A DNA stretch of 64,000 bases from an uncultured Myxococcales bacterium. GTDB lineage: Bacteria; Myxococcota_A; UBA9042; CAIXZC01. The stretch covers positions 45,906 to 109,905 of the forward strand of contig CAZVFX010000003.1 of the NCBI GenBank assembly GCA_964626565.1, in the 5' to 3' direction. The position numbers were made by a program, and so were the translations under genes. The notes beneath the pieces were generated by a model that had not been told where the DNA came from, did not search any database, and worked only from the letters and a program-made list of their open reading frames with translations. Below, in pieces: positions 10,581-47,949 of the stretch (position 1 is its first letter; each line of letters begins with the position of its first letter).

Positions 10581-11126
10581 CTACACTAGAAAGAAGAGGT
10601 TGGGGTCCATGCCCGTTTCGGGATGGAGGGTTTTCACTCGTCGCGAGTGCGCCAGTTTGGACACCTCGCTGTCGGGGTCTGCCAGATCACCAAAGGTGAG
10701 GGCCCTGGTCGGACAAGTTTCCACGCAGGCGGGTAAGCCGCCCTTTTCTACCCGGTGGAGGCAGAAGGTGCACTTGTCCACGTACCCCTCGGGATGAACG
10801 AACCGTGAATCGTAGGGGCAGGCGGCCATGCACGCCTTACAGCCGCTGCACTTCCGGTGCGTTACCAGCACAGCCCCGCCGTCGGACTTGTGGCTGGCGC
10901 CGGTGGGGCAGGCCTGTACGCAACCGGGCTTGTCACAGTGATTGCAACGGGTAGAACGAATCTCCAGATTTATGTCCGGAAAATCCCCCTCTGCCTCCTC
11001 GACTATCCAATCCCTGTAGCACCCCAGAGGAACTGCATTTTCAGTCTTGCACGCGATGACGCAGGCGCTGCAACCGACGCAGCGTCTGGTGTCGACGGCC
11101 ATGGCGTATCGCTTTTGCTTTCCCAT
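10581..11126 (-). CDS. 4Fe-4S ferredoxin-type electron-transfer subunit (PsrB/PhsB/DmsB-like)
   Basis: Four CxxCxxCxxxCP clusters: RCVGCSACVIAC, CNHCDKPGCVQACP, CSGCKACMAACP and CTFCLHR...CVETCP. Confidence 0.85.
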   Translation of the reverse strand: MGKQKRYAMAVDTRRCVGCSACVIACKTENAVPLGCYRDWIVEEAEGDFPDINLEIRSTRCNHCDKPGCVQACPTGASHKSDGGAVLVTHRKCSGCKACMAACPYDSRFVHPEGYVDKCTFCLHRVEKGGLPACVETCPTRALTFGDLADPDSEVSKLAHSRRVKTLHPETGMDPNLFFLV

Positions 11127-11129: not shown

Positions 11130-13340
11130 TTATGCCCTCTCCATGCGCACGAAGTTCACGTTCATGCCGGTCCCGCCCATAATCGGGTCCACCTTGAAGC
11201 GGGTAACGAGGTCGCTGTCGCTGGCGCCTTTCCCGTAGGCGTGTTTCAGTTGCTTCTGCTGCGTGCCCCAGCCGTGCACCATGTAGACGCAGTCCCGTCG
11301 GATGCGACGGGTGGCCCGCACTTTGATGGGCCCAGCCCTCGCATCATCCTGGTTCACAACCATTACCCGCTCGCCATTCTCGACGCCCGCCTCCTTGCAG
11401 ACGTCAACATTCACCCACAACTCGTTCTCCGGAAAAGCCTCGCACAACAACTTGTTGTTGACGGTGCGGCCGAACGAGTGAGTAGGCGCCCTTCCGAACA
11501 GCAGGCGGTACATGCCGGGAGGCGGTTCCTCGTGCGGCTCGAACTGAGGCATCGGGTCGAACCCTGCATCTTTCAGTTGTTGGGAAAACAACTCGATCTT
11601 GCCCGAAGGCGTATCAAACGTCAGCTCCAGCCCGTCCTCCTCGAACGCCGGCTCTTCTTTACCACGCAGTACACCGGTCTTTCGCAACTCTTCACAGTCG
11701 TAGCCCGCACTTTTGACTCGATGCATTGCGTACTCGACGCTATCCGCCCACGGGAAGTAGTCATCCAGACCGATACGATGCGCCACCTCCCTGGCGATCC
11801 ACCAGCCCGGACGGGAGTCGTACATGGGCTGGACCACCGGCTGCCGGATGGCCAGGTACGGGACCTTGTAGCTGGGAACGTGGATATCGTCACAGCGTTC
11901 AAGATATGTCGATTCGGGGAGCACCACATCGGACCAGCCGCAGATCTCGGCGGGAAGAACGTCCACCGTGACGATAAAATCCAGCTCCTGGATCGCTTTG
12001 TGCACCCGTGCTGCGTCGGGTAGTGATTTGACCAGGTTGGTGCCGTACACAAACCAGCCCTTGATGTCGTACTCGGCGGTGTCCGGAACACTGGCGTCAC
12101 ACAGACCCTGGGCCAACACTTCGTCGGCCAGGGGATAGCCGGAGCCCTTGGGCATGTCGGCTGGAGGGCTGGCCGGGGGAGAGTATTTTGTGTAGGGGTA
12201 CTTTGGTACATCGAGGCGTGAGGGGTAGTAGAAACCGCCTTTTCTACCCCACGCGCCCAGCAGCGCATTGAGCATCGCCTTGGCGCGTTCACGCTGCGCG
12301 TCGTCACCGTACCAGGTAGTGCGCCGTCCCGGATAGACCACCGATGCGGGCTTGAAACCCGCGATGAAGCGGGCAGTCTCCACGATAAGTTCCGGCCGGA
12401 TGGTGGTGTGGGTGTAGGCCCACTCCGGCGTCTTGTCCGACAGGTGTTTCTTTAGCTCGTCCAGACCCAATGCATGCTTCTCGAGGTAGTTGGCGTCGTA
12501 CAACCCCTCCTTCACGATAACGTGCATCCACGCCAACAGCAGCGCGATGTCGGTGCCGGGCTTAATGGGCAGCCAGTATTTCGCTTTGGAGGCTGCCACC
12601 GAGTGGCGGGGGTCCACCACCACCAGGCCCGCACCATTGCCCAGCGCCTCGGCGAATTCCTGCACCTGGGTGTTGTGCATGTTCTCGCCCAGGTGGGCGC
12701 CGATGAGAGTGATGCAGCGGCTGTTGGCCAGGTCCACACGCTCCGGAGAAGCCACTATGCCGCCGAAAGTAAGGTTGAAGCCCACCTCTCTAGGACCCCG
12801 GCACTGCGCATAAGAGGGCGCCGAGATGTTCGGCGACCCGTAGGACTTCATCAGGTGCTTGAACCAACTCCCGCCATAGCCGTGCAGGAAGAGGGCGAGG
12901 GCCTCGGGACCATGCTCGTCGCGGATCTTCAACATCTTGTCCGCCACCAGATCCAACGCCTCATCCCACTCTGCCTCCCTGAAGACCTGCTCGCCCCGCT
13001 TTGTCGAGGTGCGGATCAACGGCTTCTTCAGCCGGTCCGGATCGTAGAGAAGCCCGGTGCCGCCCGCACCGCGGGGGCACAGGCGCCCCCGTGATAGAGG
13101 ATGATCCGGATTGCCGGTGATTTTGGTCACCTTCCCCTCTTTCACGTGGGCCAGAACTCCGCACTTCCAAAAACAGAGCTCGCAGAAGGTCGGAACCACC
13201 CAGTCTCCTGCCGTTCCCGGGTCATGGATCGGGTCTCCGTCCAGCCCCCACCAACGCGTTACCAGTCCGCTGCCCGCAGCCGCAGCCACGGAGCCGGCCG
13301 TAGCGATCTTGATGAACTGCCGTCTGGTCAATCCGCTCAT
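11130..13340 (-). CDS. Molybdopterin (bis-MGD) oxidoreductase catalytic subunit with a Tat signal; PsrA/PhsA-like polysulfide/thiosulfate-type reductase
   Basis: Twin-arginine motif TRRQFIKIATAGS and an N-terminal CxxCxxxC FeS motif (CELCFWKCG). The 736-aa length suits Psr/Phs/Ttr/Arr-family enzymes; the substrate cannot be assigned from sequence. Confidence 0.8.
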   Translation of the reverse strand: MSGLTRRQFIKIATAGSVAAAAGSGLVTRWWGLDGDPIHDPGTAGDWVVPTFCELCFWKCGVLAHVKEGKVTKITGNPDHPLSRGRLCPRGAGGTGLLYDPDRLKKPLIRTSTKRGEQVFREAEWDEALDLVADKMLKIRDEHGPEALALFLHGYGGSWFKHLMKSYGSPNISAPSYAQCRGPREVGFNLTFGGIVASPERVDLANSRCITLIGAHLGENMHNTQVQEFAEALGNGAGLVVVDPRHSVAASKAKYWLPIKPGTDIALLLAWMHVIVKEGLYDANYLEKHALGLDELKKHLSDKTPEWAYTHTTIRPELIVETARFIAGFKPASVVYPGRRTTWYGDDAQRERAKAMLNALLGAWGRKGGFYYPSRLDVPKYPYTKYSPPASPPADMPKGSGYPLADEVLAQGLCDASVPDTAEYDIKGWFVYGTNLVKSLPDAARVHKAIQELDFIVTVDVLPAEICGWSDVVLPESTYLERCDDIHVPSYKVPYLAIRQPVVQPMYDSRPGWWIAREVAHRIGLDDYFPWADSVEYAMHRVKSAGYDCEELRKTGVLRGKEEPAFEEDGLELTFDTPSGKIELFSQQLKDAGFDPMPQFEPHEEPPPGMYRLLFGRAPTHSFGRTVNNKLLCEAFPENELWVNVDVCKEAGVENGERVMVVNQDDARAGPIKVRATRRIRRDCVYMVHGWGTQQKQLKHAYGKGASDSDLVTRFKVDPIMGGTGMNVNFVRMERA

Positions 13341-14827: not shown

Positions 14828-15937
14828 TCATTTGCACTTGTAAGCCATGAACGTCATGTCGAACTGGCAAGTCTTGTTGAGCAGGTCGCAATCGTCCACG
14901 TAGAGGATGTTGTTACTGCAGAACCACAGTTCGTTCTCTATGCACTCGCCCTTGTCGGTGATCCAGCCACACTCGGCCAGTGCCACGGGATAGCAGGTGC
15001 CGGCTTCGCATTCCCAGCCCAGAGGGCAGGTGCCGCACTCGCCGTAACACCCGTCGTAGCCGCACTGCTTGGGAGTCCCATCATCCCAGGTACACTGGGG
15101 CACGCACCCTTCGGAGCATACGAATTTCTGCGAGGGGCCATCCCACTTACAGTAGTAATCTTCGCCAAAGGATTGGCAAGGCGTTTCGACCAGGATGCCA
15201 TCCAGGCACTCCTGGAGAACGTTGTTCTCGGTGCAGGCGCCGGCTTCCTTGTCGATAGCTCCGCAGGGGTCATCTTCGCACATGCCGGTCAACTCGTTGC
15301 ACAGGAACGCGATGCCGCAATAACCGCAGCTACCGCCGCAACCGTCCGGACCGCACTCCTTTCCCTCGCAGTTGGCGATGATATCGCAGTCCCAATAGCA
15401 CAACCCATCGTCGCCGCAGGTGAAGTTGTCCTCGCAGCCGGGTGGGCAGGTCCCGTAACAACCGTCATCCCCGCATTTCTTGCCTTCGCATTTCGGGACG
15501 CAGACTGATTCGCAGACGCCCAGGACACACTGGTGCTCGTAGTCGCAATAGCCGCAAATGCTGCCACAGCCGTCTTCGCCACACTCCTTGACCGTCCCCG
15601 CGGGGTAGTCCGGGTTTTCACCTTCCTTCAAGGTGCACTGGGCCACACAGCCGTCAGGGCCGAGGTCCTCCGGCCACACGAATTCGTCCTGTAGCTCCTG
15701 AACCTCCAGGTCGGGCAGCTCCGCACCGTCGGGCAGCGGGGCCACCGCGTCTTCTCCCAACTCCGGAGTCACATCCTCGATCAGCTCGAAGACGTGAGAA
15801 GGCACGTCAGGGGGCGCGGGCAGGTCGGGGCCGGTGTCAGGCTTTACCGGTTCGGGCCCGCTGTTGCCGCTGTCGTCGCCACAGGCAGCCAGGAAAAAGG
15901 CAATCATCGTCATTGCCAGAATGAGTGAACATCTCAT
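14828..15937 (-). CDS. Cysteine-rich secreted lipoprotein (369 aa) with CEGKxCGxDGCxGxCG modules
   Basis: Lipoprotein signal MRCSLILAMTMIAFFLAACGDDSG; a Pro/Asp-rich linker; CEGKKCGDDGCYGTC and CEGKECGPDGCGGSCGYCG motifs. The C-terminal about 90 aa are paralogous to the C-terminus of ORF 15962..17146. Confidence 0.75.
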   Translation of the reverse strand: MRCSLILAMTMIAFFLAACGDDSGNSGPEPVKPDTGPDLPAPPDVPSHVFELIEDVTPELGEDAVAPLPDGAELPDLEVQELQDEFVWPEDLGPDGCVAQCTLKEGENPDYPAGTVKECGEDGCGSICGYCDYEHQCVLGVCESVCVPKCEGKKCGDDGCYGTCPPGCEDNFTCGDDGLCYWDCDIIANCEGKECGPDGCGGSCGYCGIAFLCNELTGMCEDDPCGAIDKEAGACTENNVLQECLDGILVETPCQSFGEDYYCKWDGPSQKFVCSEGCVPQCTWDDGTPKQCGYDGCYGECGTCPLGWECEAGTCYPVALAECGWITDKGECIENELWFCSNNILYVDDCDLLNKTCQFDMTFMAYKCK

Positions 15938-15961: not shown

Positions 15962-17146
15962 CTAGAGTATGCAGTTATACCCTCCGGCTCCGAAATTGGC
16001 GCCGAAGTCCCAATCACACTTGGTGAAACCGTTCTGTACGCAATCATAGCCGTACAAAATCCCTTGCTCGCAGAACCACCTTACGTCTCCGACGCACAAC
16101 CCGACGACGCCGTCGATCCAGGCACACTCTCCACCTTCCGCCGGCTTGCAGATCCCGCTGGCGCATCCCCATCCGGTGGGGCATACACCGCAGCTCCCCC
16201 AGCAGCCGTCGTCGCCGCACTCTTTGGCCGAACCGTCGTTGAACGTGCATTGGGGGTCGCAGTCGGTTTCAGGTACGCATTCGTACTTGCCGGTATCCTG
16301 GTTCCAGCCGCACATGTGGTCTTTAATCGACTTGCAGTTGGTAACTGTCAACTCAAGTTCAATGCATTCGGCGAGGTTGTACTTGTCGTCGCACCTGCCC
16401 TTGTAGTCCACGGTGCCGCACGGGTGCGGCTCGCATAGTCCTTCCTCGCTGCAGATTTCCCCGAACTGGCAGTTTCCACAGGAGTGGCCACAACCGTCGT
16501 CCCCACACTCCTTGCCCCCGCAATCGCCGTCACACGCCTCGCCGTAGCACATGCCATTGGGCGAACACGAGGTCCCGTCCTCGAGGCAGAACCCGCAGTA
16601 CCCTCCACACGCGTCGGGACCACATTCCTTCCACACCACATCGTTATCGACGGTGGTGGTGCACTCTTTCGGGCACACGCTGGCCTCACAAACTCCGTCG
16701 GCGCAGACGTATCCATACGCGCAATACCCGCAGATACCATCACAGCCGTCGGAGCCACACTCCTTGCCGGAGCAGTTCTTCATGCACGGGCCGACATCTT
16801 TGTCGGGCTTGGTGTCGATTTCGGGCTTCACTTCGGGTGCGGACTTGTCTTCGGCAACGTCCGGAATGGAGAAGTCGGCGTCCCCCACATCGGGCACAAT
16901 CACGGTTCCGTCGTCGGTGGTTTCGACATCCGTCGGGGAACCGGGCTTCTCACCGGAGTGGACCTCCTCAGGGCCTATGATGACAGTAAGGGTGTCATCA
17001 TCCTTGACGTCCACCAGAGGCATCTCACCGTCCGAGAAACCGGAAGGCGTCGTGGTCGTATCTGCAGAGCAGGCGGCAAGCCCAGCGGTGACAAGCAGCG
17101 CCATCAGCAGGCAGAATCTGTGGGTCATATCGTCTCTCCTACGCAC
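15962..17146 (-). CDS. Cysteine-rich secreted lipoprotein (394 aa), paralogue of ORF 14828..15937
   Basis: Signal LLMALLVTAGLAACSAD; a Thr/Asp-rich linker; the modules CSGKECGSDGCDGICGYC and CGGKECGDDGCGHSCGNC; a C-terminal domain shared with the downstream paralogue. Confidence 0.75.
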   Translation of the reverse strand: MRRRDDMTHRFCLLMALLVTAGLAACSADTTTTPSGFSDGEMPLVDVKDDDTLTVIIGPEEVHSGEKPGSPTDVETTDDGTVIVPDVGDADFSIPDVAEDKSAPEVKPEIDTKPDKDVGPCMKNCSGKECGSDGCDGICGYCAYGYVCADGVCEASVCPKECTTTVDNDVVWKECGPDACGGYCGFCLEDGTSCSPNGMCYGEACDGDCGGKECGDDGCGHSCGNCQFGEICSEEGLCEPHPCGTVDYKGRCDDKYNLAECIELELTVTNCKSIKDHMCGWNQDTGKYECVPETDCDPQCTFNDGSAKECGDDGCWGSCGVCPTGWGCASGICKPAEGGECAWIDGVVGLCVGDVRWFCEQGILYGYDCVQNGFTKCDWDFGANFGAGGYNCIL

Positions 17147-17395: not shown

Positions 17396-20300
17396 CTAGT
17401 CAGGTTGGCAGGAGCCGGGGTTGCCCGGTTCGCAGTGAGCGTCGGGATCGCATTGGGAATCGTAGGTACACATGTTGGCGCAAGCGGGGGGCAACTGGTC
17501 CACCTGGCCGTTGCAGTGAACCGCCTTGTAGAGGCCGCAGTCGTCGCTTTCCACCGATTGATCGCAGCCCGCATCGTCGCCGACGATCACAGTGCCGCAA
17601 ACCGACAGCTCGCACGTGGCGTCCTGGCGTTCCCCTTCACACAAGGGGGGAGAGATGCACTCCGACGGGCTGGCGTATTCGGCCGGACAATCCCCGGCGA
17701 CAAAACAGCAGTCCCCCGTCTCACAACAGAAGCCGTTTTGACAGTAGCCGGAAGTGCAATCGCCGTTTTCATCGCAAGTTTTTCCATCAGCGAGGTCAGC
17801 CAGGCAGTGGCCACCATCGCAGTGGGCTAAGGCGGTGCACTCCTCGTCTACCAGGCAGGCGACAGGGCAGGAAGGCGGTTGCTGGTCGCCGTCCCCGGAG
17901 CAGTAGACCGGATCGTAGAAGCCACAATCCAGGGCCGGGGACTGGCCGTCACACGCGGAGTCGTCGGCCACCTCCAGGCTGACGCAAACGTTGGCCTGGC
18001 AGGCCGCTTCGAGCCTGGAACCCTGGCAGGTTTGCGGATCCTGGCAGGTCGCCGATTCCGAGTACTCTCCGGGACAGTGGTTCGCCAACGCGCAGCAATC
18101 TCCCGAGGAGCAGCAGAATCCGTTCTGACAATGGAAGGACTGACAGTCGGAGTCCTCGTCGCAGGCGGCGCCATCACCCAAATCGGCAAGGCAGGCGCCA
18201 TCGCAATGAGCGCTCGCGTCGCACTCGTCGTCACCTAGGCAAACCGTGGGGCAAAGCGGTTGCTCCTGTTGCACACTGCCGTTGCACACCACCGAAAGAA
18301 ACGGCCCGCAGTCATGGGCTTCGGTCCACCAGCCACACCCGGAATCGTCTTCCGCTTCGAGGCTGCCGCATACGAAGTTGTCACAGGTTGCATCCACGCG
18401 GTGCCCCTGGCAGCCGGCCGCGTCGTCACACGCCGGGTACTTCTTGTATTGCCCGGGGCAGCCCGCGGCCGAAAGGCAGCAATCACCGCTATCGCAGCAG
18501 ATTGCGTGGTTACAGTGGCCGGAGTTGCAGTCGGAGTCCTCGTTGCACGACGCTCCGTCCGGAAGGTCGCCGAGGCACACCCCGTCACAATGGGCGCCCG
18601 GGTCACACTCGTCATCCGCCAGGCACTCCAGCGGGCACAACGGGGAGTCCTGGTCTTCTTCCCCCGTGCAGAAAAGGTCAAGGTACGCGCCGCATCCCGC
18701 CGCGTTCACTTGCTGCGTGCACGCGGAGTCATCTGCTACGATATCGGACCCACATACGAAGTCGGCGCACGTCGCGTCCACCCGCTGCCCCTGACAATCT
18801 GCGGGCCACAGGCAACCGGGAAGTGAGGAGTAGTCCGGCGGGCACTCAGCGGCATCGATACAGCAGTCGCCGCTCTGGCAGCAAATACCTGCCGAGCAGT
18901 GTCCGGACGTGCAGTCGGAGTCCTCGTCACACTCCAGGCCGTCGCCGACATCCGGAACGCAGATGTTCTGCCCGGGTCCCGGGTCGCAATGGGCGCCGGG
19001 ATCGCAATGACCGTCGGCCTGGCATTCTTCCGGACAGGCCGGACCGGGCTGCGAAACCTCACCGGTGCAGAGCACGGGCAGAAACAAACCGCAATCGTCT
19101 GCCGTCACATCTTCGGTACAGCCCGAGTCGTCGTCGACGGCCAGTTCCCCGCACTGGTGGTTCGTACAAACCGCATCGACCCGCTGCCCCTGGCACGCGG
19201 CAGGCTCTTCGCACTGAGGCGAGGCGGAGAACTCCGGTGGACAGTTCGAAGCCGTTGCGCAACAGGCGCCTTGCGCACAGCAATAGCCGTTACCGCAGTG
19301 GCCACCGGCGCAGTCGGAATCCTCGTTGCACTCCAGCCCGTCGTCAATGTCCGGCTCACAGACACCGTCGCAATGAGCCTGGTCGTCGCACTCGGAATCC
19401 CACTGGCAGGCCTCGGGGCAACCCGGGGCAGGTTGATACTTGGCGCCGGTGCAATAGACATCGGCAAACAACCCGCAATCCCCGGCCAGCACCAGAGGAC
19501 CGCACGCACTGTCGTCAAGCACCAGGTCAGACACGCAAATGAAGTTGCTGCATCCGCGGTCCTGCCGGGTGCCCTGGCAGCTCTCAGGGGTCACGCACAC
19601 CGGCGGGCTGTCGTACTCCGGCGGACAGTGGTAGTTGAACTGGCAGCAATCGCCAGAGGCACAGCAGAAACCGTTCTGGCAGTGTCCGGAGATGCAATCG
19701 CTCGCCTCGTCGCAGGAAAGACCATCGGTGAGGTCGGGCTTGCAAATGGAATCGCAGTGATAGTCGGGCGCGCACTGCGAGTCCTCACCGCACGTTTGCG
19801 AACATTCGGGCTCCGGTTGTGCCGGCTCGCCGGTGCAATGGAGGTCTGGAAACGGTCCGCAGTCGTTGGCCAGCAGGGCAATATCGCACCCGGAATCGTC
19901 GTCAACGTCGGCGCTGCCGCACCGGCTATCTTCACACACCGCGTCGACCCTGTGTCCCTGGCACGAAGCAACATCGTCGCACACCGCAGCGGCCCAGAAC
20001 TCATCAGGGCAGTCCACGGCCAGTGAGCAGCAGACATCCGAGGCGCAGCAGTAGCCGTTGGCGCAATAGCCGGATTCGCAGTCAGAGGCTTCGTCGCACT
20101 CGGCGCCGTCCTGAGCGTCCGGAAGGCACGTTTCCCCCCCCTCCAGGCCGGCAGGATCGCAATGTGCTCCGGGGTCGCATTCTTCGTCTCCGACGCAGTT
20201 GGTGGGGCACTCAGGCTTCTGCTGGTCCTGGAACGCAGCGCACATGACCGGGAGGAACAGACCACAATCGTCAACCACGTTGAGGATATTGCAAGCGCTG

Positions 20301-23227
20301 TCGTCGTCGAAGGTCACGCTCTCGCAGGTTGCCTGGGTGCACGCGGCGTCAATACGAAACCCCTGACAGGAGCCGGGGTCGGCACATTTGGGAGGTGTGG
20401 AGAAGGAGTCGGGACAGCTCGACGCCTGGTTGCAGCAGACGCCTTCGCTACAGCAGTATCCGTTGTCGCAATGGCCGGAAATGCAGTCGCTGGGCTCGTC
20501 GCACACGGTGCCGTCCACCTGGTCCGCAACACAGGTCTTGGCTCCGGGGCCCACGGGTGGATCGCAGTGAAATCCCGGGGAGCAGATATCGTCGTCGGAG
20601 CAGTTCAGTGGACAGGCCGGTGCGGGCTGATACTCTTGTCCGGAGCAGTAGCTGGGCAAGTAACTCCCGCACTCCAGCGCCAGCACGTCGGGGCCGCATC
20701 CCGTGTCATCCCCGAGGGTCGCGGTTGAGCCGCACTGGAAACCCTCGCAAAACGCGTCGATGCGGATCCCCTGGCAATCGTCCGGGATCACGCAAAGTGG
20801 AGCCGTTGCGTATTCCGCCGGGCAATCCGCGACCTCGACACAACAGTCTCCGGACCCGCAGCAAAAACCGTTCTGGCAATGTCCCGACATGCAGTCACCA
20901 TCCTCATCACAGGAATATCCGTCGGGAAGGTCCGGCTTGCAAACGTGCTGCTCAGCGTCCGCGGAAGGGTCGCAGTGGGCATCCGGGCTGCAGTCGTCGT
21001 CCACATCACACCCTGCAGAGCATGGAGCAGACAACTGAGCCGGCTGACCGGTGCAATATTGCGAAGGATAAGGAGCGCAGTCTTTCGCCAGCATTCCGGC
21101 ACTACATCCGGAGTCATCGTCGATGGGGCCGATAGAACCGCAGATGTACATTTCGCAGGTGGCATCCATGCGATGGCCCTGACAGGAAAAGGACTCCTGG
21201 CACGTGGGCGTAAGAGAGTATTTGTCCGGGCACTGGTCAGCCTTGAGGCAGCAATCGCCGAAAGCACAGCATACCCCTGCGCTGCAATGGTCGGAGAGGC
21301 AGTCGGTGGCCACGTCGCACGGGCCGCCATCATCCTGGCGCGGTTCGCACAGCCCCTCCTTGCAGGTAAACCCCGCTTCACAGTCGCTCTGATCAATGCA
21401 TGAGGCCGGGCACAGGGGCGGAGCCTGAGTCTCGTCACCGTTGCAGAATAGCTCACCATACGGCCCACAATCCACCGCCGGCTCTTCAGCGACACAGGCG
21501 CTGTCGTCGGGTATGCCGGGAAGAGCAGAGCAGCTATTCTCGACACACGCTGCGTCGGTGCGTGTACCCTGGCAGAGTCCGGGCTCGTCGCAGGCGGCTG
21601 GCGACGAGAAAAGCTCGGCGCAATCGTCGTCATCGTCGCAGCACAACCCGTCGAGGCAACAGAGACCTCCCTCACAGTGGGTCGAAAGACAATCGCTGTC
21701 TTCGTCGCAGGAGAAGCCATCTTCGAGGTCCGGCTTGCAAACGTAGTCGCAGTGAAAACCCGGGTCGCAGTCGAGGTCGTCAGCGCAGCCGTTGGAACAG
21801 GCCGGAAGAGCCTGCTTCTCCAGACCGTTGCAGTGAACCGGGGGATAGGCCCCGCACTCGTTGGCGAGGGTCTGTTCGTCGCACCCGGAGTCGTCGGGTT
21901 GGACCGGTCCGGTCTGGCACATGTTGTTGACGCACTGAGCATCCTGCCGGTGCCCCTGACACACTTCCGCATCGTCGCACACCGGCTGGAGCCAATGGTC
22001 ATCCGGGCACAGGGCCGCGTCAAAACAGCAGTCTCCCGCCTGGCAACAGACGTTGTGAGCACAGTGGCCGGAGTTGCATTGAGGGTCGGTGTCGCAAACC
22101 GCACCTTCGGGGAGGGCTGGCACACACTGACCATCCTGGTTACAAAACGAGCCACCTGCGCAGCCGCCGTCGTCTTCGCAATCGGTAAGGCAGGCGCCGA
22201 ACGCGCCGATCTTGTCACAAGCGAACAGCCCGCAAGAAGCGGTGCCGGCTTCGACGCACTGCCCATCAACACACGCCTCGCCGCCAACCATGTAGAACTC
22301 CACCCCCTCCTGAAGGCAGAAAGGAGGGGCACAATTGGAGGCTGCCTCATCCACGAGGCCATCGCAGTCATCGTCCACCCCGTTGCAAACTTCGAGGGAG
22401 GCGACGTTAAACGGCTCACAAGCCCCGATGCCGGTGGCCAGGCAGGGGCGAAACCCGGGGCACGTCCCGAACTCGTTGCTCGTTTCGCAAGGCAGTTCCT
22501 TGCCTTCCTCACCGGGCAGGCAAAGGCAGTTGCCGGAAGGCGGTGCGCACAGACCCTGGATTGCCCCTTCCTGGTGGCAGTCAAGGCCGTTGGCGCAGGC
22601 ACCCTCATCGTCGCACTGGTGCAAGAGCACGTGAGCCCCGTCCAGTTGAGCGCACAAGACATTGTCGAACGGGGGCGGCAGGGCCGGGTCGCAAGGCTCG
22701 CAGAAACCCACCAGAGAGGGCACGCACAAGTCCTCATCGTCGAGGGACCAGCACTGCCAATCCGGGGGACAGACCTCATCGCAGATGGTGGTGCACACCC
22801 CACCGAGGGGGGTAGCGAGGCATTGCCCCGGATCGCAATCTTCGTCGGATTCGCACAGTTCACCAAAGGGGAACTCGACTGCCACTTCCGTCTCGGCCTC
22901 GCCTTCCGCATCGGCTTCGGTTTCCGAAACGTCTCCGGCATCAGCGGAACCGGCTTCGGCGTCGGACAAGTCCGGAGCGATCAGATCGACCTCGCCGGAC
23001 ACATCGTACAACTCCGGCCCGACATCGACCGTCTCCGGGGCAACCGCGCCGTCCGGTTTCAGGTCCGTCGCCAACTCGGATTCGACATCGGCCAAGGCCA
23101 ACTCCCCGCCCGCATCGAGCAGGTCGATTCCGCCGCCGACCGAAGGTGTCGAACAATGGGTGAGAGAGGTGAGGCAGAGAACAAGGCTAATCAATCGCAG
23201 GCGCATGGGCGCTCCTTTCGCGCACAA
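17396..23227 (-). CDS. Giant (about 1940 aa) secreted cysteine-rich protein G2 with about 12 tandem ~105-aa Cys repeats; the probable start is the internal M (MRLRLISLVLCLTSLTHC)
   Basis: It has the conserved N-terminal Cys module (ELCESDEDCDPGQC...) plus a MopE-like motif CNGVDDDCDGLVDEA. About 12 repeats follow, each with DCxSGHCxNGxCC...CQGxRxDAxC...DDSxC...CPxxCxxDxxCDPGAHCD. Confidence 0.8.
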   Translation of the reverse strand: MCAKGAPMRLRLISLVLCLTSLTHCSTPSVGGGIDLLDAGGELALADVESELATDLKPDGAVAPETVDVGPELYDVSGEVDLIAPDLSDAEAGSADAGDVSETEADAEGEAETEVAVEFPFGELCESDEDCDPGQCLATPLGGVCTTICDEVCPPDWQCWSLDDEDLCVPSLVGFCEPCDPALPPPFDNVLCAQLDGAHVLLHQCDDEGACANGLDCHQEGAIQGLCAPPSGNCLCLPGEEGKELPCETSNEFGTCPGFRPCLATGIGACEPFNVASLEVCNGVDDDCDGLVDEAASNCAPPFCLQEGVEFYMVGGEACVDGQCVEAGTASCGLFACDKIGAFGACLTDCEDDGGCAGGSFCNQDGQCVPALPEGAVCDTDPQCNSGHCAHNVCCQAGDCCFDAALCPDDHWLQPVCDDAEVCQGHRQDAQCVNNMCQTGPVQPDDSGCDEQTLANECGAYPPVHCNGLEKQALPACSNGCADDLDCDPGFHCDYVCKPDLEDGFSCDEDSDCLSTHCEGGLCCLDGLCCDDDDDCAELFSSPAACDEPGLCQGTRTDAACVENSCSALPGIPDDSACVAEEPAVDCGPYGELFCNGDETQAPPLCPASCIDQSDCEAGFTCKEGLCEPRQDDGGPCDVATDCLSDHCSAGVCCAFGDCCLKADQCPDKYSLTPTCQESFSCQGHRMDATCEMYICGSIGPIDDDSGCSAGMLAKDCAPYPSQYCTGQPAQLSAPCSAGCDVDDDCSPDAHCDPSADAEQHVCKPDLPDGYSCDEDGDCMSGHCQNGFCCGSGDCCVEVADCPAEYATAPLCVIPDDCQGIRIDAFCEGFQCGSTATLGDDTGCGPDVLALECGSYLPSYCSGQEYQPAPACPLNCSDDDICSPGFHCDPPVGPGAKTCVADQVDGTVCDEPSDCISGHCDNGYCCSEGVCCNQASSCPDSFSTPPKCADPGSCQGFRIDAACTQATCESVTFDDDSACNILNVVDDCGLFLPVMCAAFQDQQKPECPTNCVGDEECDPGAHCDPAGLEGGETCLPDAQDGAECDEASDCESGYCANGYCCASDVCCSLAVDCPDEFWAAAVCDDVASCQGHRVDAVCEDSRCGSADVDDDSGCDIALLANDCGPFPDLHCTGEPAQPEPECSQTCGEDSQCAPDYHCDSICKPDLTDGLSCDEASDCISGHCQNGFCCASGDCCQFNYHCPPEYDSPPVCVTPESCQGTRQDRGCSNFICVSDLVLDDSACGPLVLAGDCGLFADVYCTGAKYQPAPGCPEACQWDSECDDQAHCDGVCEPDIDDGLECNEDSDCAGGHCGNGYCCAQGACCATASNCPPEFSASPQCEEPAACQGQRVDAVCTNHQCGELAVDDDSGCTEDVTADDCGLFLPVLCTGEVSQPGPACPEECQADGHCDPGAHCDPGPGQNICVPDVGDGLECDEDSDCTSGHCSAGICCQSGDCCIDAAECPPDYSSLPGCLWPADCQGQRVDATCADFVCGSDIVADDSACTQQVNAAGCGAYLDLFCTGEEDQDSPLCPLECLADDECDPGAHCDGVCLGDLPDGASCNEDSDCNSGHCNHAICCDSGDCCLSAAGCPGQYKKYPACDDAAGCQGHRVDATCDNFVCGSLEAEDDSGCGWWTEAHDCGPFLSVVCNGSVQQEQPLCPTVCLGDDECDASAHCDGACLADLGDGAACDEDSDCQSFHCQNGFCCSSGDCCALANHCPGEYSESATCQDPQTCQGSRLEAACQANVCVSLEVADDSACDGQSPALDCGFYDPVYCSGDGDQQPPSCPVACLVDEECTALAHCDGGHCLADLADGKTCDENGDCTSGYCQNGFCCETGDCCFVAGDCPAEYASPSECISPPLCEGERQDATCELSVCGTVIVGDDAGCDQSVESDDCGLYKAVHCNGQVDQLPPACANMCTYDSQCDPDAHCEPGNPGSCQPD

Positions 23228-23356: not shown

Positions 23357-24841
23357 TCAGCAGTCAGCCGGGCAGCTCGCCATGGTTTCCGTCGCGCCGC
23401 AGACGCCGTCGCCGCAGGGGCCGCAATCATCCGCACAGTTGGCCGGCGTCTCGGGGCCGTCGCAAATGGCATCGCCGCAGGAAGCTGTGCAGTCCTGGGC
23501 ACAGGATGCGAGGGTCTCGGAGAGAGCACATATCCCGTCCCCGCACGACGCACAATCCAGGGGGCAACTGTTGGCAGTCTCGCCCGGATTGCATGCACCA
23601 TCCCCGCACGGAGGCGTACAGTCAATCGGGCAGGTACCCACGGTTTCCCCTGCGTCACATGCGCCGTTAGCGCAGGTATCCTCACAATCCCAGGGGCATG
23701 CCACGGAGTCTTCCGTCAGGTTACACACGCCGTCGCCACAATCGCCACAATCGGCGGGGCAGGCTGCTGCGTTCTCATCGGCCTGGCAGATGGAATCACC
23801 GCAGAAAGGCATGCAGTCGAGGGGACAGGTGCCGGGTCCATCCTCGTGGACCCCGCATATGCCGTCGCCGCAAGGGCCGCAGTCGTGGGGACACAACGGC
23901 ACCGATTCGGTGAGCTCACATTTGCCGTTTCCGCAGACGCCGGCACAGCCGGGCACCTCCGCGCCGGGCACACAAACACCCACCTCGCAGTGGTCTCCGG
24001 CAGTACACTGATTGCCGTCGTCGCAGGGCACACCATTGAGGGGTTGGTGAACACAACCGCCGAAGGCATCACAAGTGTCGGAGGTGCACGCCTCACCATC
24101 ATCGCAGTCGATGGTGGTCCCGGCAACGCACTGCCCGTTGATACAACTATCGCCGGTAGTGCACGGGTCCCCGTCCTCACATTGGCCTTCCAGAACGGTG
24201 TGCATGCAACCTTCCACCGGGTCACAATAGTCATCTGTGCACCAGTTGTTGTCGTCACAGGTGTTGGCCTGGCCGCCAAGGCACTCCCCCGCTTCGCACT
24301 GCTCGCCCACGGTGCACGGGTCCCCATCCTCGCACAAGTTGGTGTTGGGAGGGTTGATGCACCCTTCATCGGGAGCACAAAGGTCGTCGGTGCAGGGGTT
24401 GTCGTCCGCGCAATCAAGAGGCTCGGTGCCCGGCTTGCAGGCCCCTTGTTCGCAGAAGTCGCCGTTGGTACAGGGGTTGCCGTCGTCGCACTCACCTTCC
24501 GACAGGCTGAACGCACACTCTCCGGAAGGGGTGCAATACCCTTCGGTGCACGGGTTATCATCGCCACAGCCGGTGTCCACGACACACGTGCCGCCACAAC
24601 CGTCGTGGTCGCCGCAGCTCTTATCTTCACAGTCGGGAACACACTCACCCTCGTCGGGTTTCACGTCGGCGCCGCCCGTGTCACTGCCCCCACCGGTGTC
24701 AACCGTAACATCATCACCGGCAACTTCCGTCGCAACTTCCGGTGTGAAGCCGGCGTCGTCATCGCCGCCACCGTCACCTCCGCCGCAGGCAGAAAGGGAA
24801 AGAACGAGTGCTGCGCTCCACCAGATGACTGCTCCTCGCAT
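23357..24841 (-). CDS. Cysteine-rich secreted lipoprotein (494 aa) with CxDGNPCTxDxC repeats followed by CGDGxC...E...CPxDC repeats
   Basis: Signal AALVLSLSACGGGDG; about 8 CDDGNPCT-type repeats and about 8 CGDGICG...CP(L/A)DC repeats. Same architecture as ORF 32835..34469. Confidence 0.75.
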   Translation of the reverse strand: MRGAVIWWSAALVLSLSACGGGDGGGDDDAGFTPEVATEVAGDDVTVDTGGGSDTGGADVKPDEGECVPDCEDKSCGDHDGCGGTCVVDTGCGDDNPCTEGYCTPSGECAFSLSEGECDDGNPCTNGDFCEQGACKPGTEPLDCADDNPCTDDLCAPDEGCINPPNTNLCEDGDPCTVGEQCEAGECLGGQANTCDDNNWCTDDYCDPVEGCMHTVLEGQCEDGDPCTTGDSCINGQCVAGTTIDCDDGEACTSDTCDAFGGCVHQPLNGVPCDDGNQCTAGDHCEVGVCVPGAEVPGCAGVCGNGKCELTESVPLCPHDCGPCGDGICGVHEDGPGTCPLDCMPFCGDSICQADENAAACPADCGDCGDGVCNLTEDSVACPWDCEDTCANGACDAGETVGTCPIDCTPPCGDGACNPGETANSCPLDCASCGDGICALSETLASCAQDCTASCGDAICDGPETPANCADDCGPCGDGVCGATETMASCPADC

Positions 24842-24866: not shown

Positions 24867-27800
24867 CTATCTTACAAAAATTTCGAGGTCGTTGAACAGA
24901 ACATATTCAGGGCTCGATTGATCTTCGACGCCCCACCGTAGGATATTGGACTCCGCCACCGGGGTGTTGAAGGTGTAATACTTGGACGTGCCGCCGGAAT
25001 TCCAGTCCCCGCCCCACTGCCCCCCGGTCTTGAGCACCGTTCCGGGAGTGCCGAACATAACATACCCGTTGGAGCCGTTGCCCGTCTTTCCCCAGGAGCC
25101 GGCGTTCCAGTTGTCGTCGTGATGGATGCCGCTTCCGCCGTAACCGCGCCAGCTCCCCCTCACTTCCGAAAAGGTGAACATAGTGTCGATTTCGAAGTAC
25201 ACCAGCTTGTCCCCGCCGCCGTTGTTGCTGCCGATGGCGAAAGAAGGGTTGTCCCCGTCGGTGACCACCGTATAGCCCGGTCCCACGATCACCTTGGCCT
25301 CATGTGGGAAATGCTGATAGCTGTTCACTCCGCCCACGTCCCCGGTGCTGGAAATCAGGGTCCACCCTCCCCCGTTGGTATCCATGTCGCAATAAACCTC
25401 GAAGGGATCGACACCGCCGATGCCGTCCGGATCCAGGGTGTACAACCCGCTCTCAGCGTTGGGGCTCTCGTCCAGGAAGTCTTTGCAGGACGAGATGGTG
25501 CAGCCGTTGTCCGCGATACCGCTGCAATCGTCGTCCAGGCCGTTGTCGCAGATCTCCTCGGCCTCATGGTTAATGTCAGGGTCGGTTGGAGCACAGTCGG
25601 TGATGTCGGGATCGTTGTCGTTGTCGTCATCCGGATCCACGCAGTCGGCCAGTCCGTCGGCGTCGCTGTCCGGGAAACCGTCGTCGATGCCGCCGTTGCA
25701 GTTGTTGTCCAGACCGTCGCATTCCTCAGGCTGCGAACCTTCCATCGGATCACATTCCACCTCCTGCCCTTCTGCACAAAGAGGCGTGGAGTGGAGGCAT
25801 TCTCCAAGGCCGCAGGAGAGCATCCCCAGCCCCTCATCAAGGAGGCCGTCACAGTCGTTGTCAACCCCGTCACATTCCTCTGCCACCGCCCCTTCCTTTG
25901 GATCACACACCTGGGGGACCCCGTCCGCACAGTTCTGGACGATGTGGGTGCATACTCCCTGGCCGCACGAAGTCGACCCGAGTCCGTCATCCTCCAGACC
26001 GTTGCAGTCGTTGTCCAGGCCGTCGCAAATCTCCGGGGCAACGCCCAGGAAGGGGTCGCACACCGCGATCTTTCCATCAACGCAATAATCCTGCTCGTGA
26101 AAACACTCGCCTTTGCCGCACTGCACCGAACCGAGGTCTTCGTCCACCGCGTCATCGCAATCGTTGTCCTGGCCGTCACAGACCTCGGCCGCCGCCCCTT
26201 CCATGGGATTGCACACCTGCGGCACACCGCCCACGCACACCGGCACCGTGTTCTCGCACGCGCCCAGACCGCAGGTAATCTGGCCCAGATTCTCATCCAC
26301 CTGTCCGTCGCAATCGTTGTCGATTCCGTCGCATATTTCTACACCAACACCCTCCTCCGCGTTGCAGTCTTGTGGGATGCCACCGACGCAATTCTGAACG
26401 GTGTGAAGGCAAACGCCGAGCCCGCAGGTGGTGGTGCCCAGGTCTTCATCGACCAGGCCGTCGCAGTCGTTGTCGTTTCCATCACATTTTTCGAGCTCAA
26501 CACCCTCCATCGCCTCGCAGACTTGAGGGATACCACCGACGCAATTGTCAACGGTATGATTGCACACACCCAGGCCGCAGGTGGTGGTGCCCAAATCCTC
26601 ATCCACACTATCATCGCAGTCGTTGTCAAGGCCGTCGCACACTTCCATGGCCGCGGGGTTGATGGTCGCATCGAGGGGAGCGCAGTCCGCGTCGTCGGAA
26701 TGACCGTCGTTGTCGTCATCAAGATCGGTACAGTCTTTGAGCCCATCCAGGTCGCTATCGTTAAAACCCTCGTCGATGAGGCCGTTGCAGTTGTTGTCTA
26801 CGCCGTCGCAAACCTCCTGGGCGCCGGGATTCACGTTGGGGTCGAGCGGAGCGCAGTCTTCTGCGTCGGGGGTGCCGTCGCCGTCCTTGTCCCCCTCACA
26901 CGCATCCCCCACGCCGTCATTGTCGCTATCCTCCTGCCCCGGGTTCTCTACACCAACACAATTGTCCGCGCTGTCTTCCACGCCGTCTCCGTCCAGGTCG
27001 TCGTCGCACGCGTCGCCCAGACCATCCCCGTCGATGTCCGACTGTTGCGTGTTTTTTACGCCAACACAGTTGTCCGCGCTATCGGGTATTGCATCTCCGT
27101 CAGCGTCGGGGTCGCAAGCATCGCCCAGGCCATCCTCATCCAGGTCCTCCTGGCCCGGATTCTCCACGCCAACACAATTATCCGCACTGTCGGCGACGCC
27201 GTCGTCGTCGGCGTCGTCGTCCACGCAGTCAGCCACACCATCTCCATCGATATCCGGGAATCCGTCGTCCACATCCCCGTCACAATCGTTGTCCAGGCCG
27301 TCGCAGATTTCGGCCGCACCAGGGAACACCGACGCATCAGTCGGCGCACAGTCGGCGCCATCAACGACGCCATCGTTGTCGTCATCTTCGTCCACGCAGT
27401 CCTTCCACCCGTCCGCGTCGGTGTCGGTGGACCCTTCATCCACTATGAAGTTGCAGTTGTTGTCCTTGCCGTCGCACAACTCCTCGGCGCCGGGATGGAT
27501 GTCCTGGTCGAAAGGAGCACAGTCCTCCGCATCCGAGGTCTGGTCGTTGTCGTCGTCCAGGTCGCAGACGTCGCCAAAATTGTCCAGGTCATTGTCCTCC
27601 TGCCCCGGGTTGTTCACGCCAACACAGTTATCCGCGCTGTCGACGATGCCATCTCCATCTTTGTCGGTCTCCATGCAGTCAGCGATCCCATCGTCGTCGG
27701 TATCTTCGAAACCCTCGTCGGTGGCGCCGTCGCAATCGTTGTCCTCGCCGTCGCAGCTTTCCGCGTGCGCCTCTTCTCCTTCGCACACCAGTTTGCCCTG

Positions 27801-28682
27801 GTCGCACGCATACTCTCCGGCACAGGTGCCGAACTCGTTGGCCACCAGGCAGGCGTCGCCCCCGGTGTCCTCGTCAATTTCGCCGTCGCAGTCGTCGTCC
27901 TGACCGTTACACTCGTCCACTTCCGGCTCAGGTGCCGAACAAGGGGTCAGGCCATCCGCCATGCACTGGCGGTCGCCGAAACATCTACCCCACTCGTTTT
28001 CCGCGAAACAATCAGTGGCCGCACCTTCATCAATGTACCACTGGTTGCACTCACATTCTCCCTGGGACCGCGTGCACTGAGTCACCGCTCCGCCGGCCAC
28101 ATCTTTGCCATCGCCACAGTAGTAGCCTGCCGGGCAATCTTCGTCATCGTCACAATTGGCGCCACAGAAGTTTCCACCTTCCCCGTAATCTACGCAGGAC
28201 TGCCCGGCGTCGACGCCGTTGGTCCAACATTCGTCGTTCTGCGTACACGGCCGGCACAGGTCAACCATGGTAGGTACGCAAATGAACACCTGGTCCGGCA
28301 TGCTCGGAGGGTGCAGGAAACAACTCCAGTCGAAGGGGCACTCTTCCACGCAGGAGATGGTACACTGCATCCCGTCCGCGGTCTGGATACAGAATCCCGA
28401 GTCGCAGTCAGCCGCTCCCTCGCACGGATACCCCGCCGCGCCTGGCTCAGGCCCGCACGCATCCCCGCACACGTCCGCCAACGCTTCTCCGAAGTCCCAA
28501 CCGTCGGTTTTCGCGTCTTCGTCCAGCGACTCAGGCTCCACCCCGGCGTCGTCGGCCACCTCAGCCGGTGCAAAGCCGTCCCCGGCATCGACACCACCAA
28601 GGTCCTCAGACACCGTAACCGCACCGTCGCCACAAGCCATCGACAAGACAACCGCTGCAAAAAGAACAATCCCTATTCTCAT
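24867..28682 (-). CDS. Giant (about 1270 aa) secreted lipoprotein G3 with TSP3 repeats, MopE-like repeats and a C-terminal fibrinogen-like domain; the start is the internal M (MRIGIVLFAAVVLSMACGDG)
   Basis: The N-terminal module is nearly identical to G1 (GYPCEGAADCDSGFCIQTADGMQCTISCVEECPFDW...). It carries TSP3 DxDxDGxxDxxDNC repeats and six CGLGxC...CDGxDNDCDGxxDE repeats. The C-terminus CKDFLDESPNAESGLYTLDPDGIGGVDPFEVYCDMDTNGGGWTLI matches the fibrinogen C-terminal domain signature. Confidence 0.8.
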   Translation of the reverse strand: MRIGIVLFAAVVLSMACGDGAVTVSEDLGGVDAGDGFAPAEVADDAGVEPESLDEDAKTDGWDFGEALADVCGDACGPEPGAAGYPCEGAADCDSGFCIQTADGMQCTISCVEECPFDWSCFLHPPSMPDQVFICVPTMVDLCRPCTQNDECWTNGVDAGQSCVDYGEGGNFCGANCDDDEDCPAGYYCGDGKDVAGGAVTQCTRSQGECECNQWYIDEGAATDCFAENEWGRCFGDRQCMADGLTPCSAPEPEVDECNGQDDDCDGEIDEDTGGDACLVANEFGTCAGEYACDQGKLVCEGEEAHAESCDGEDNDCDGATDEGFEDTDDDGIADCMETDKDGDGIVDSADNCVGVNNPGQEDNDLDNFGDVCDLDDDNDQTSDAEDCAPFDQDIHPGAEELCDGKDNNCNFIVDEGSTDTDADGWKDCVDEDDDNDGVVDGADCAPTDASVFPGAAEICDGLDNDCDGDVDDGFPDIDGDGVADCVDDDADDDGVADSADNCVGVENPGQEDLDEDGLGDACDPDADGDAIPDSADNCVGVKNTQQSDIDGDGLGDACDDDLDGDGVEDSADNCVGVENPGQEDSDNDGVGDACEGDKDGDGTPDAEDCAPLDPNVNPGAQEVCDGVDNNCNGLIDEGFNDSDLDGLKDCTDLDDDNDGHSDDADCAPLDATINPAAMEVCDGLDNDCDDSVDEDLGTTTCGLGVCNHTVDNCVGGIPQVCEAMEGVELEKCDGNDNDCDGLVDEDLGTTTCGLGVCLHTVQNCVGGIPQDCNAEEGVGVEICDGIDNDCDGQVDENLGQITCGLGACENTVPVCVGGVPQVCNPMEGAAAEVCDGQDNDCDDAVDEDLGSVQCGKGECFHEQDYCVDGKIAVCDPFLGVAPEICDGLDNDCNGLEDDGLGSTSCGQGVCTHIVQNCADGVPQVCDPKEGAVAEECDGVDNDCDGLLDEGLGMLSCGLGECLHSTPLCAEGQEVECDPMEGSQPEECDGLDNNCNGGIDDGFPDSDADGLADCVDPDDDNDNDPDITDCAPTDPDINHEAEEICDNGLDDDCSGIADNGCTISSCKDFLDESPNAESGLYTLDPDGIGGVDPFEVYCDMDTNGGGWTLISSTGDVGGVNSYQHFPHEAKVIVGPGYTVVTDGDNPSFAIGSNNGGGDKLVYFEIDTMFTFSEVRGSWRGYGGSGIHHDDNWNAGSWGKTGNGSNGYVMFGTPGTVLKTGGQWGGDWNSGGTSKYYTFNTPVAESNILRWGVEDQSSPEYVLFNDLEIFVR

Positions 28683-28897
28683 CCTCTCCCCCTGCTTCAC
28701 CCTCGAACGCCAGCATGCGCCACATGTTCGCGCACGCAGCATGCGTTGCCAAATTTTCTGTTGGGCCCGGGGCTCACTGTTTCCGTTGCAATCCGCGTGC
28801 AAGGCCACCTATTCTGGTAGCGTCGCATTTCAGGAAGAGGTTGAGGGAAGACCGAGAAGGAACAGTTGTAGGGCCGCCGGACAAGCAAGGAGTCTCA

Positions 28898-47913: not shown

Positions 47914-47949
47914 GGTCAAAGCACTCAAGCAACGCGGAGGTGCGCGGTT

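Follow-up and report, generated by a model that had tools for sequence, protein, structure and literature searches.

A tandem array of 20-cysteine repeats in a predicted surface protein of an uncultured Myxococcales bacterium

Introduction

EGF, TSR, granulin, and LDL-receptor class A modules are small disulfide modules that occur in tandem and build stiff stalks or multivalent binders, which are often acidic and bind Ca2+. Cysteine-rich tandem modules are also a known kind of component in giant bacterial surface proteins. Two short Pfam families are relevant to the locus described here, namely, DUF7107 (PF23416; 48 amino acids [aa]), a domain of unknown function, and Dickkopf_N (PF04706), which corresponds to cysteine-rich domain 1 of the Dkk proteins and has 10 cysteines. 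Cysteine-rich repeats termed CysRReps have also been described in secreted proteins, most of them derived from prokaryotes, whose function is unclear (Daugavet et al. 2026, bioRxiv 10.64898/2026.06.07.730663). The gene analyzed here, G2, encodes a long array of cysteine-dense repeats and lies in a 64,000-nucleotide (nt) stretch of DNA from an uncultured Myxococcales bacterium (assembly GCA_964626565.1, contig CAZVFX010000003.1, positions 45,906 to 109,905 of the forward strand), which is referred to as the window. The CysRRep spacing given in that preprint, C-x6-9-C-x5-7-C-x8-11-C-x7-8-CC, had 0 occurrences in G2 in a regular-expression search. Literature searches on the repeat, on DUF7107, on bacterial Dickkopf-like domains, and on the sample and run accessions returned nothing relevant other than the CysRRep preprint, which is unrelated, and DUF7107 was not mentioned in any of the literature searched.

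Here we report the architecture, age, and distribution of the G2 repeat. We put at roughly 55% the probability that G2 is an exported, lipid-anchored, nonenzymatic structural protein that forms a stiff, disulfide-stapled, polyanionic rod on the cell surface.

Units of the array and their cysteine pattern

The G2 array comprises 12 tandem units of 128 to 136 aa each (nt 17399..22117, aa 371-1943) and reaches the last residue, so that the protein ends with unit 12. Units were cut at an anchor motif, C..G.C....CC, whose 12 occurrences are 128 to 136 residues apart. Every unit has exactly 20 cysteines (12 of 12 units; 240 repeat cysteines), with the spacing C-x5-C-x4-C-x4-CC-x4-CC-x5-C-x9-C-x5-C-x8-C-x4-C-x10/11-C continued by -x8-C-x7-C-x10-C-x3-C-x5-C-x5-C-x3..10-C, in which only two gaps (x10/11 and x3..10) vary in length. 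Conservation extends beyond cysteine: histidine occupies unit position 18 in 75% of family units and position 121 in 71%, and the pair Asp74-Asp75 is nearly invariant.

The initial annotation of this DNA had described about 12 tandem cysteine-dense repeats, and the array is indeed real and 12 units long, but the dimensions given there need correction. Units are not ~105 aa long, as measured above, and each contains 20 cysteines rather than ~14 (the consensus string offered at the time itself holds 19). The array had been placed at 17396-21940, whereas it begins 177 nt upstream of 21940. Apart from these counts, the consensus motif agrees with the aligned units of G2.

To score the units, we trained an independent hidden Markov model (HMM) on 363 units taken from distant family members; G2 and its 90% cluster were left out, as were the close orthologues P0001-P0014. 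This model recovered exactly 12 domains in G2, at 104 to 125 bits each, while the best domain score in 200 composition-preserving shuffles of the protein was 2.5 bits. Therefore, the array is far beyond what chance would produce. A six-frame scan with the repeat HMM found no instance of the repeat in other open reading frames (ORFs) of the window.

Distribution of the repeat family

A word-indexed search with whole G2 returned 79 proteins, 14 of them near full length at 41 to 54% identity; all 79 come from metagenomes or metagenome-assembled genomes (MAGs), and the named ones are "hypothetical protein" or "MopE-related" entries from Deltaproteobacteria or Myxococcota. When 1.84 billion representative proteins were searched exhaustively with a repeat profile, 415 matched at E ≤ 1e-3, of which 331 remained at E ≤ 1e-10 and 155 at E ≤ 1e-30; a search for the repeat elsewhere had been proposed in the initial annotation. 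Matched repeat stretches number 1 to 16 per protein, and exactly 20 cysteines are present in 528 of 546 full-length units from 174 family proteins; some short members match profile positions 2-107 only and thus lack the last four cysteines described below as the C-knot. On this evidence, the ~130-aa, 20-cysteine repeat constitutes an uncatalogued family, to which all 12 units of G2 belong by their independent HMM scores.

The source labels of family members are almost all uncultured Deltaproteobacteria or Myxococcota MAGs. One member, P0124 (NCBI MFH1642724.1; 4,759 aa, 6 matched stretches), is labeled as a "Nanoarchaeota archaeon" MAG, which may be due to misbinning or to transfer beyond Bacteria. 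A scan of GTDB genomes with whole G2 returned a single locus, L001 (CAKZKQ010000658.1; 26% identity), which was rejected as a carrier because it lacks the repeat and its similarity is compositional, reflecting cysteine richness; the searches made here turned up no copy of the repeat from a genome that is named or cultured.

These data also dispose of the suspicion that the repeat is no biological domain but an artefact of composition or assembly, or a spurious ORF arising from GC-rich sequence. The window does have a GC content of 60 to 64% and many long, overlapping spurious ORFs on both strands. However, the identical 1,936-aa product occurs in independent assemblies (an ENA metagenome scaffold of 80.9 kb and a contig in Logan; the protein is also NCBI/Logan/ENA member P0219), and neither the 14 near-full-length homologues, nor the 415 representative clusters, nor the gap between unit and shuffle scores is compatible with an artefact, which is excluded.

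Age of the array

The units of G2 are only moderately similar to one another, as had been noted initially: pairwise identity averages 47% at the amino acid level (39 to 56%) and 54% at the nucleotide level (maximum, 61%), and neighboring units are no closer than distant ones. The longest exact word common to units is 18 nt. Tandem Repeats Finder detected no array in G2 at the DNA level.

Unit order is preserved in an orthologue. P0001 is 54% identical to G2 overall and has 14 units, and unit i of G2 finds its best match in unit i of P0001 for 11 of the 12 units (53 to 66% identity on the diagonal versus ~45% off it). This positional correspondence is weaker in comparisons with P0006 and P0007, and there is none with P0012, which is 41% identical to G2. 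Because 11 of 12 units pair position for position, the array in its present order is older than the split between G2 and P0001. The low nucleotide identity, the lack of long common words, and the shared unit order together support the original view of an old array rather than a recent duplication.

A composite period of double knots and cores

The first four cysteines of a unit (C8, C14, C19, and C24) and the last four (C110, C116, C122, and C126) lie in homologous ~20-aa motifs of the form C-x2-D-x2-C-x2-G/A-H-C-x2-G-x-C, here termed the N-knot and the C-knot (hhalign probability, 86%; E = 5e-6). At every boundary the C-knot of unit n adjoins the N-knot of unit n+1, forming a ~47-aa double knot that takes up ~36% of the period. 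There are 11 such junctions along the array, and the 250-aa head that precedes it ends with one additional four-cysteine knot directly before unit 1.

Cysteine losses across the family follow the same division. Each of the 10 core cysteines (Cys 7-16) is kept in more than 98.5% of 659 aligned family units, while joint loss of all four C-knot cysteines (Cys 17-20) was seen in 19 units and of Cys 1-4 in 2 units; a pairwise co-loss table shows that Cys 1-6 also tend toward joint loss. Losses go by module and in even sets, and these statistics agree with a modular period. Co-loss is visible at the module level only and did not resolve individual disulfide pairs; most single losses are misalignments in the last loop, which varies in length.

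To compare the junctions with known families, we scanned 10 isolated segments of 57 aa each against Pfam. DUF7107 was listed for seven of them and reached at most 18.0 bits, in an alignment to profile positions 1-47 of 48, and in the scan of the whole protein it was the only Pfam-A family listed (18.1 bits, E = 0.0034), its best stretch (aa 350-396) combining the extra knot of the head with the N-knot of unit 1. Neither value reaches the gathering score of 24.6. Dickkopf_N was listed for six junctions at a cut-off of E ≤ 10, and for four of these E was ≤0.03; its scores were 10 to 21 bits at all but the best junction. Its highest score, at the junction of units 8 and 9 (24.0 bits, E = 5e-5, profile positions 1-50 of 51; the same junction scores 16.1 bits with DUF7107), also remains below the gathering score, which is 25, and Dickkopf_N gave no match from whole units or the whole protein.

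Relatives of G2 cross the threshold that G2 itself does not. In P0017, DUF7107 scores 27.9 bits at aa 1133-1178, over the junction of units 7 and 8 (which end at 1152 and start at 1155, respectively); in P0089, it straddles a junction at aa 678-723, and the whole protein reaches 68 bits over 5 stretches; and in P0026, it scores 26.0 bits at aa 794-840, beginning in the last C-knot. Because these above-threshold matches fall exactly on unit junctions, they formally tie the junction knots to DUF7107. P0089 also has an above-threshold Dickkopf_N match, which lies apart from its array, in a separate double knot. A junction profile searched against PDB sequences gave insignificant matches only (spider knottin, E = 0.13; scytovirin, E = 0.22; Dkk1, E = 4.6 to 9.7), and the Dickkopf_N likeness may come from the generic C-x5-C-x5-C-x3-C knot rather than from ancestry shared with the animal Wnt antagonists.

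Searches for known families and solved structures

Beyond the junctions, no match to the repeat was found in the libraries searched. NCBIfam (which includes TIGRFAMs) listed 0 families for G2 at E ≤ 1, and Pfam scans of each unit alone at E ≤ 10 gave nothing meaningful. PF11617 (Cu-binding_MopE) was not listed for G2 at E ≤ 1, nor was Dicty_CTDC (PF00526) for the whole protein or its units. Two repeat profiles, A1 (the 12 G2 units) and A2 (88 diverse units), retrieved 0 PDB sequences at E ≤ 10 with hmmsearch.

An AlphaFold2 model of unit 7, computed from alignment A2 (88 sequences), has a mean predicted local distance difference test (pLDDT) score of 98.3, with all residues above 90, and a predicted template modeling (pTM) score of 0.80. 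Beta strands are predicted at residues 43-49, 54-63, 66-73, and 83-85, with irregular cysteine-rich flanks. A two-unit model (units 6 and 7, alignment A6) has a pLDDT of 97.9 and a pTM of 0.73, which is high for an elongated chain and would be consistent with a defined geometry between units. Foldseek searches with the single-unit model gave a best E of 2.1 and template modeling scores of ≤0.22 against PDB and a best E of 2.7 against BFVD; with the two-unit model, the best E against PDB was 1.3, and no Dkk chain was found. Foldseek is insensitive to small irregular disulfide knots, so the lack of a match carries more weight for the beta-rich core than it does for the knots.

The initial annotation could place the repeat in no named family and proposed a Foldseek search of a single repeat. 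That search produced no match below E = 1 in either PDB or BFVD, and no high-confidence match to a well-described domain emerged at threshold from Pfam, NCBIfam, PDB sequences, or Foldseek, DUF7107 being itself of unknown function. The statement can be refined: it holds for the ~80-aa core, which has no match, but not without qualification for ~36% of the period, which is like DUF7107 and Dickkopf_N at sub-threshold scores in G2. The period is best described, from sequence and modeling, as a ~47-aa DUF7107-like double-knot connector plus a ~80-aa beta-rich core without a library match.

Export, charge, and a model for the protein

The mechanically called ORF of G2 is longer than the gene given in Table 1, extending over 17396..23227 on the minus strand with a TTG start at 23227. 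The N terminus is probably a lipoprotein anchor, judging from the signal peptide with its lipobox-like cysteine. A hydrophobic N terminus with a terminal cysteine is present in 13 of 13 close homologues inspected (ending in LALAAC, LLAAC, LLASC, and STVHC, among others), several of which have a canonical lipobox, L-A-A/S-C. By a rough heuristic applied to the 124 family proteins with a complete N terminus, 106 (85%) have an N-terminal hydrophobic stretch and 84 (68%) are lipobox-like; all of these lipoprotein calls were made by inspection and a home-made heuristic. Pfam and NCBIfam scans found no enzymatic domain in G2, and promoter and terminator scans of its surroundings gave no signal beyond that expected from shuffled sequence.

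G2 contains 277 cysteines in all (14.3% of its residues). Acidic residues (375 D+E) outnumber basic ones (37 K+R), for a net charge of -338, and each unit carries a charge of -17 to -29 compared with a family mean of -15 per unit. Domains that co-occur with the repeat in 17 long family members are P_proprotein (7 members), LTD (5), MopE (3), Dicty_CTDC (2), and dockerin (2), together with cohesin, disintegrin, fn3, Laminin_G_3, Fibrinogen_C, Ig-like, DUF7107, and Dickkopf_N in single members; all are extracellular binding or structural modules.

From these features we propose the following model. An N-terminal lipid anchor would be followed by a flexible acidic linker, the cysteine-rich head, and the 12 modules of ~130 aa, each of which is most likely stapled by ten disulfides. 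Each period would pair the double four-cysteine knot at the junction with a ~80-aa, beta-rich core of 10 to 12 cysteines. Since each double knot would bridge two successive cores, we predict a stiff fibre, like beads on a rod, and not a floppy chain, and because of the excess of acidic over basic residues, the rod would be a polyanion. Its most likely role would be to project from the envelope within a coat of similar acidic, cysteine-rich proteins encoded around G2, where it would serve in cation-bridged adhesion or matrix formation, whether to surfaces, to minerals, or to other cells.

The same domain company raises the possibility that the array is a multivalent receptor, each unit of which binds a specific protein or glycan partner in the manner of LDL-receptor class A or EGF arrays, for example to recognize prey or kin in a Myxococcota-like bacterium of predatory or social habit. 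This reading, which overlaps with the rod proposed above, strikes us as rather unlikely. Units do keep their identity across orthologues (the diagonal of 11 of 12 units described above) and are not interchangeable, loops vary between the fixed cysteines, and the family co-occurs with the recognition modules disintegrin, LamG, Fibrinogen_C, and cohesin/dockerin. Common descent alone, however, explains the positional identity with no need for unit-specific function; no partner, conserved operon, or known binding motif was found; and a copy number that varies from 2 to 16 among relatives is more easily reconciled with a spacer of tunable length than with binding sites fixed in number.

Genomic neighborhood and the case for metal binding

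Features of G2 and its surroundings are collected in Table 1. Eight other proteins of the window are also cysteine rich (8 to 15% Cys) and hyperacidic (16 to 25% D+E and 1 to 6% K+R); together with G2, they amount to ~10,100 aa, or roughly 47% of the window. Pfam recognizes TSP3 with MopE, MopE with TSP3 and Fibrinogen_C, and Dicty_CTDC in some of them, two of these neighbors carrying PF11617, and gives no match for the 1,907-aa and 761-aa proteins (at E ≤ 1e-5 for the former). The 1,907-aa ORF (34415-40138, plus strand; 18% D+E, 10% Cys) is not matched by the G2 repeat HMM and may hold another uncatalogued cysteine-rich repeat protein in the size class of G2. A halophilic host was considered as an explanation for the acidity and rejected, the cytoplasmic enzymes of the window having an ordinary composition.

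Table 1. Coordinates of G2, its parts, and neighboring genes in the window (unit scores in bits are from the independent HMM)
Feature	Position	Strand	Description
Gene G2	17396..23206	minus	ATG start at 23206; 1,936-aa product; stop codon 17396-17398
Signal peptide	23153..23206	minus	Lipobox-like Cys (MRLRLISLVLCLTSLTHC, followed by S); read from sequence
Acidic linker	22868..23152	minus	Cys-free; 95 aa; 28% D+E (computed composition)
Cysteine-rich N-terminal head	22118..22867	minus	250 aa; 34 Cys (translation, composition)
MopE-like motif in head	22340-22387	minus	CNGVDDDCDGLVDE; sequence reading
Unit 1	21731..22117	minus	aa 371-499; 20 Cys; 111 bits
Unit 2	21341..21730	minus	aa 500-629; 20 Cys; 106 bits
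Unit 3	20933..21340	minus	aa 630-765; 20 Cys; long final loop; 104 bits
Unit 4	20525..20932	minus	aa 766-901; 20 Cys; 119 bits
Unit 5	20120..20524	minus	aa 902-1036; 20 Cys; 114 bits
Unit 6	19736..20119	minus	aa 1037-1164; 20 Cys; 118 bits; first half of modeled di-unit
Unit 7	19352..19735	minus	aa 1165-1292; 20 Cys; 125 bits; unit modeled singly
Unit 8	18953..19351	minus	aa 1293-1425; 20 Cys; 121 bits
Unit 9	18569..18952	minus	aa 1426-1553; 20 Cys; 120 bits
Unit 10	18185..18568	minus	aa 1554-1681; 20 Cys; 123 bits
Unit 11	17798..18184	minus	aa 1682-1810; 20 Cys; 123 bits
Unit 12	17399..17797	minus	aa 1811-1943; 20 Cys; 114 bits; C-terminal end of protein
Example junction double knot	18875..19036	minus	Unit 8 C-knot plus unit 9 N-knot; aa 1398-1451; 10 Cys
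MopE + TSP3 + Fibrinogen_C protein	24867-28808	minus	1,313 aa; upstream of G2; Pfam
Dicty_CTDC protein	23357-24841	minus	494 aa; upstream of G2, same strand; Pfam
Cysteine-rich lipoprotein-like protein	15962-17146	minus	394 aa; immediately downstream of G2; no Pfam match
Cysteine-rich lipoprotein-like protein	14828-15937	minus	369 aa; downstream of G2; no Pfam match
Weak tocopherol-cyclase-like gene			Further downstream of G2
Molybdopterin oxidoreductase	11130-13340	minus	psrABC-like (polysulfide/thiosulfate-reductase-like) cluster
4Fe-4S protein	10581-11126	minus	psrABC-like cluster
NrfD-type membrane subunit	9568-10569	minus	psrABC-like cluster
Sulf_transp membrane protein	7814-9289	minus	Beside psrABC-like cluster
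Eight cysteine-rich acidic proteins	2524-6765, 14828-15937, 15962-17146, 23357-24841, 24867-28808, 34415-40138, 47146-51708, 51722-54007	plus, minus, minus, minus, minus, plus, plus, plus	In order of position

The two lipoprotein-like proteins encoded downstream of G2 (394 and 369 aa) share a repeated "ECGxDGCGGxCGxC" motif. In locus L006 counterparts of the two genes follow the orthologue P0006 in unchanged order (52% and 57% identity); they were not found next to P0001 or P0007, and the P0009 locus also differs. No conserved operon around G2 was found among the neighborhoods of P0001, P0006, P0007, and P0009. Proteins of 622 aa lie near the orthologues P0007 (TMEM260_N, GT-C glycosyltransferase-like) and P0006 (L006 10442-12310, no Pfam entry on record), whereas none of this length is encoded beside G2 in the window. 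Elsewhere in the window, a DegT gene (42814-44070) has named homologues that are 53 to 56% identical and come from Myxococcales, Myxococcota, and Deltaproteobacteria MAGs, with one from Candidatus Lernaella, which places the host with moderate confidence in a deep, uncultured, Myxococcota-like lineage.

The psrABC-like cluster suggests, by gene content, anaerobic sulfur respiration in the host. In a rival reading, the cysteines would be ligands of metals or metal sulfides, making G2 a high-capacity, extracellular or periplasmic protein with which a sulfur-respiring anaerobe binds or stores Cu, Zn, Fe, or metal-sulfur clusters, with Asp/Glu and His as additional ligands. The cysteine content of 14%, the conserved histidines at positions 18 and 121, the near-invariant Asp74-Asp75 pair, and the extreme acidity of G2 are all as such a protein would have them. 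Neighboring genes and many relatives, moreover, carry MopE, which Pfam describes as a "putative metal-binding motif," and the psrABC-like cluster and a sulfur transport gene lie 4 to 9 kb downstream. We nevertheless consider metal binding through the cysteines quite improbable. The cysteine count is strictly even per unit (20) and per separable submodule, and the cysteines form CC doublets and C-x3..5-C ladders of the disulfide-knot type rather than the CxxC/CxC pairs of metal sites. The knots resemble the disulfide-rich Dickkopf_N and DUF7107, and AlphaFold2 folds the unit at a pLDDT of 98 without a cofactor, a weak point given that zinc sites, too, can be modeled with confidence. Adjacency to psr genes is absent in the three orthologue loci inspected, and the MopE label is itself only putative, the motif having no score in G2.

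Several points do weigh against the disulfide-stapled surface rod. The oxidized state of the 240 repeat cysteines is deduced rather than observed, and the polysulfide-reductase-like cluster lies 4 kb from G2; if the host lives anaerobically under sulfidic conditions, as it may, extracellular disulfides would be less obviously stable. The pTM of the two-unit model is an indirect proxy for rigidity. The lipobox of G2, L-T-H-C (LTSLTHC), is noncanonical at position -1, and lipoprotein status was assigned by the inspection and heuristic described above. No recognizable ligand-binding domain was found by Pfam or NCBIfam at the distal, C-terminal end of the protein, and the neighborhood is only partly conserved and so provides no functional anchor.

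A bolder picture can be drawn, which we regard as improbable. The unit would be a new disulfide-rich fold of core plus bridging knots that is polymerized in cis into rigid polyanionic rods, and these, along with the other hyperacidic, cysteine-rich proteins that take up about half of the window, would be cross-linked by cations into an extracellular, matrix-like coat, built of eukaryote-style modules (Dkk-like knots, TSP3, fibrinogen-C, disintegrin, and LamG) by an uncultured lineage akin to Myxococcota; or else the 240 cysteines would act as thiolate ligands, and the array would be a scaffold for metals or metal sulfides outside the cells of an anaerobe that respires sulfur.

Significance and comparison with known systems

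The value of the G2 repeat lies in cataloguing and structural biology rather than in a new mechanism or system. The repeat is a well-bounded candidate for a new Pfam family (130-aa period, 20 cysteines, ~415 representative clusters) and a target for structure determination, and it gives the orphan DUF7107 a structural context as the putative connector between the cores of a supra-repeat. More broadly, it points to a large unexplored repertoire of hyperacidic, cysteine-dense surface proteins in uncultured Myxococcota-like bacteria, one that uses module types better known from animal extracellular matrix and that bears on how these often predatory or social bacteria build their surfaces and make contact with cells or minerals.

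Among described systems, the connector is a relative of an existing DUF. The junction aligns with nearly the entire DUF7107 profile but spans only about a third of the G2 period, and the ~80-aa core has no counterpart in DUF7107. The double knot at a G2 junction has 10 cysteines, as does Dickkopf_N; in contrast, the two-unit model, which includes an intact junction, found no Dkk structure with Foldseek, a soft negative for knots of this size. The core and the 130-aa supra-repeat are uncatalogued and are without a solved-structure match despite a model of near-perfect confidence.

The MopE-related (PF11617) giant lipoproteins of Myxococcota MAGs share with G2 their lineage, a lipobox, an acidic linker, and a long cysteine-rich extracellular region. 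Many carriers of the G2 repeat also hold PF11617, and the head of G2 has a look-alike, CNGVDDDCDG. The MopE motif, however, is 30 aa long and is unrelated to the 130-aa repeat in length and cysteine pattern. With the eukaryotic EGF, TSR, granulin, and LDL-receptor class A arrays, G2 has in common a working principle rather than a family: no match to theirs in sequence or structure was found for its module, which is bacterial and, at 130 aa and 20 cysteines, much larger.

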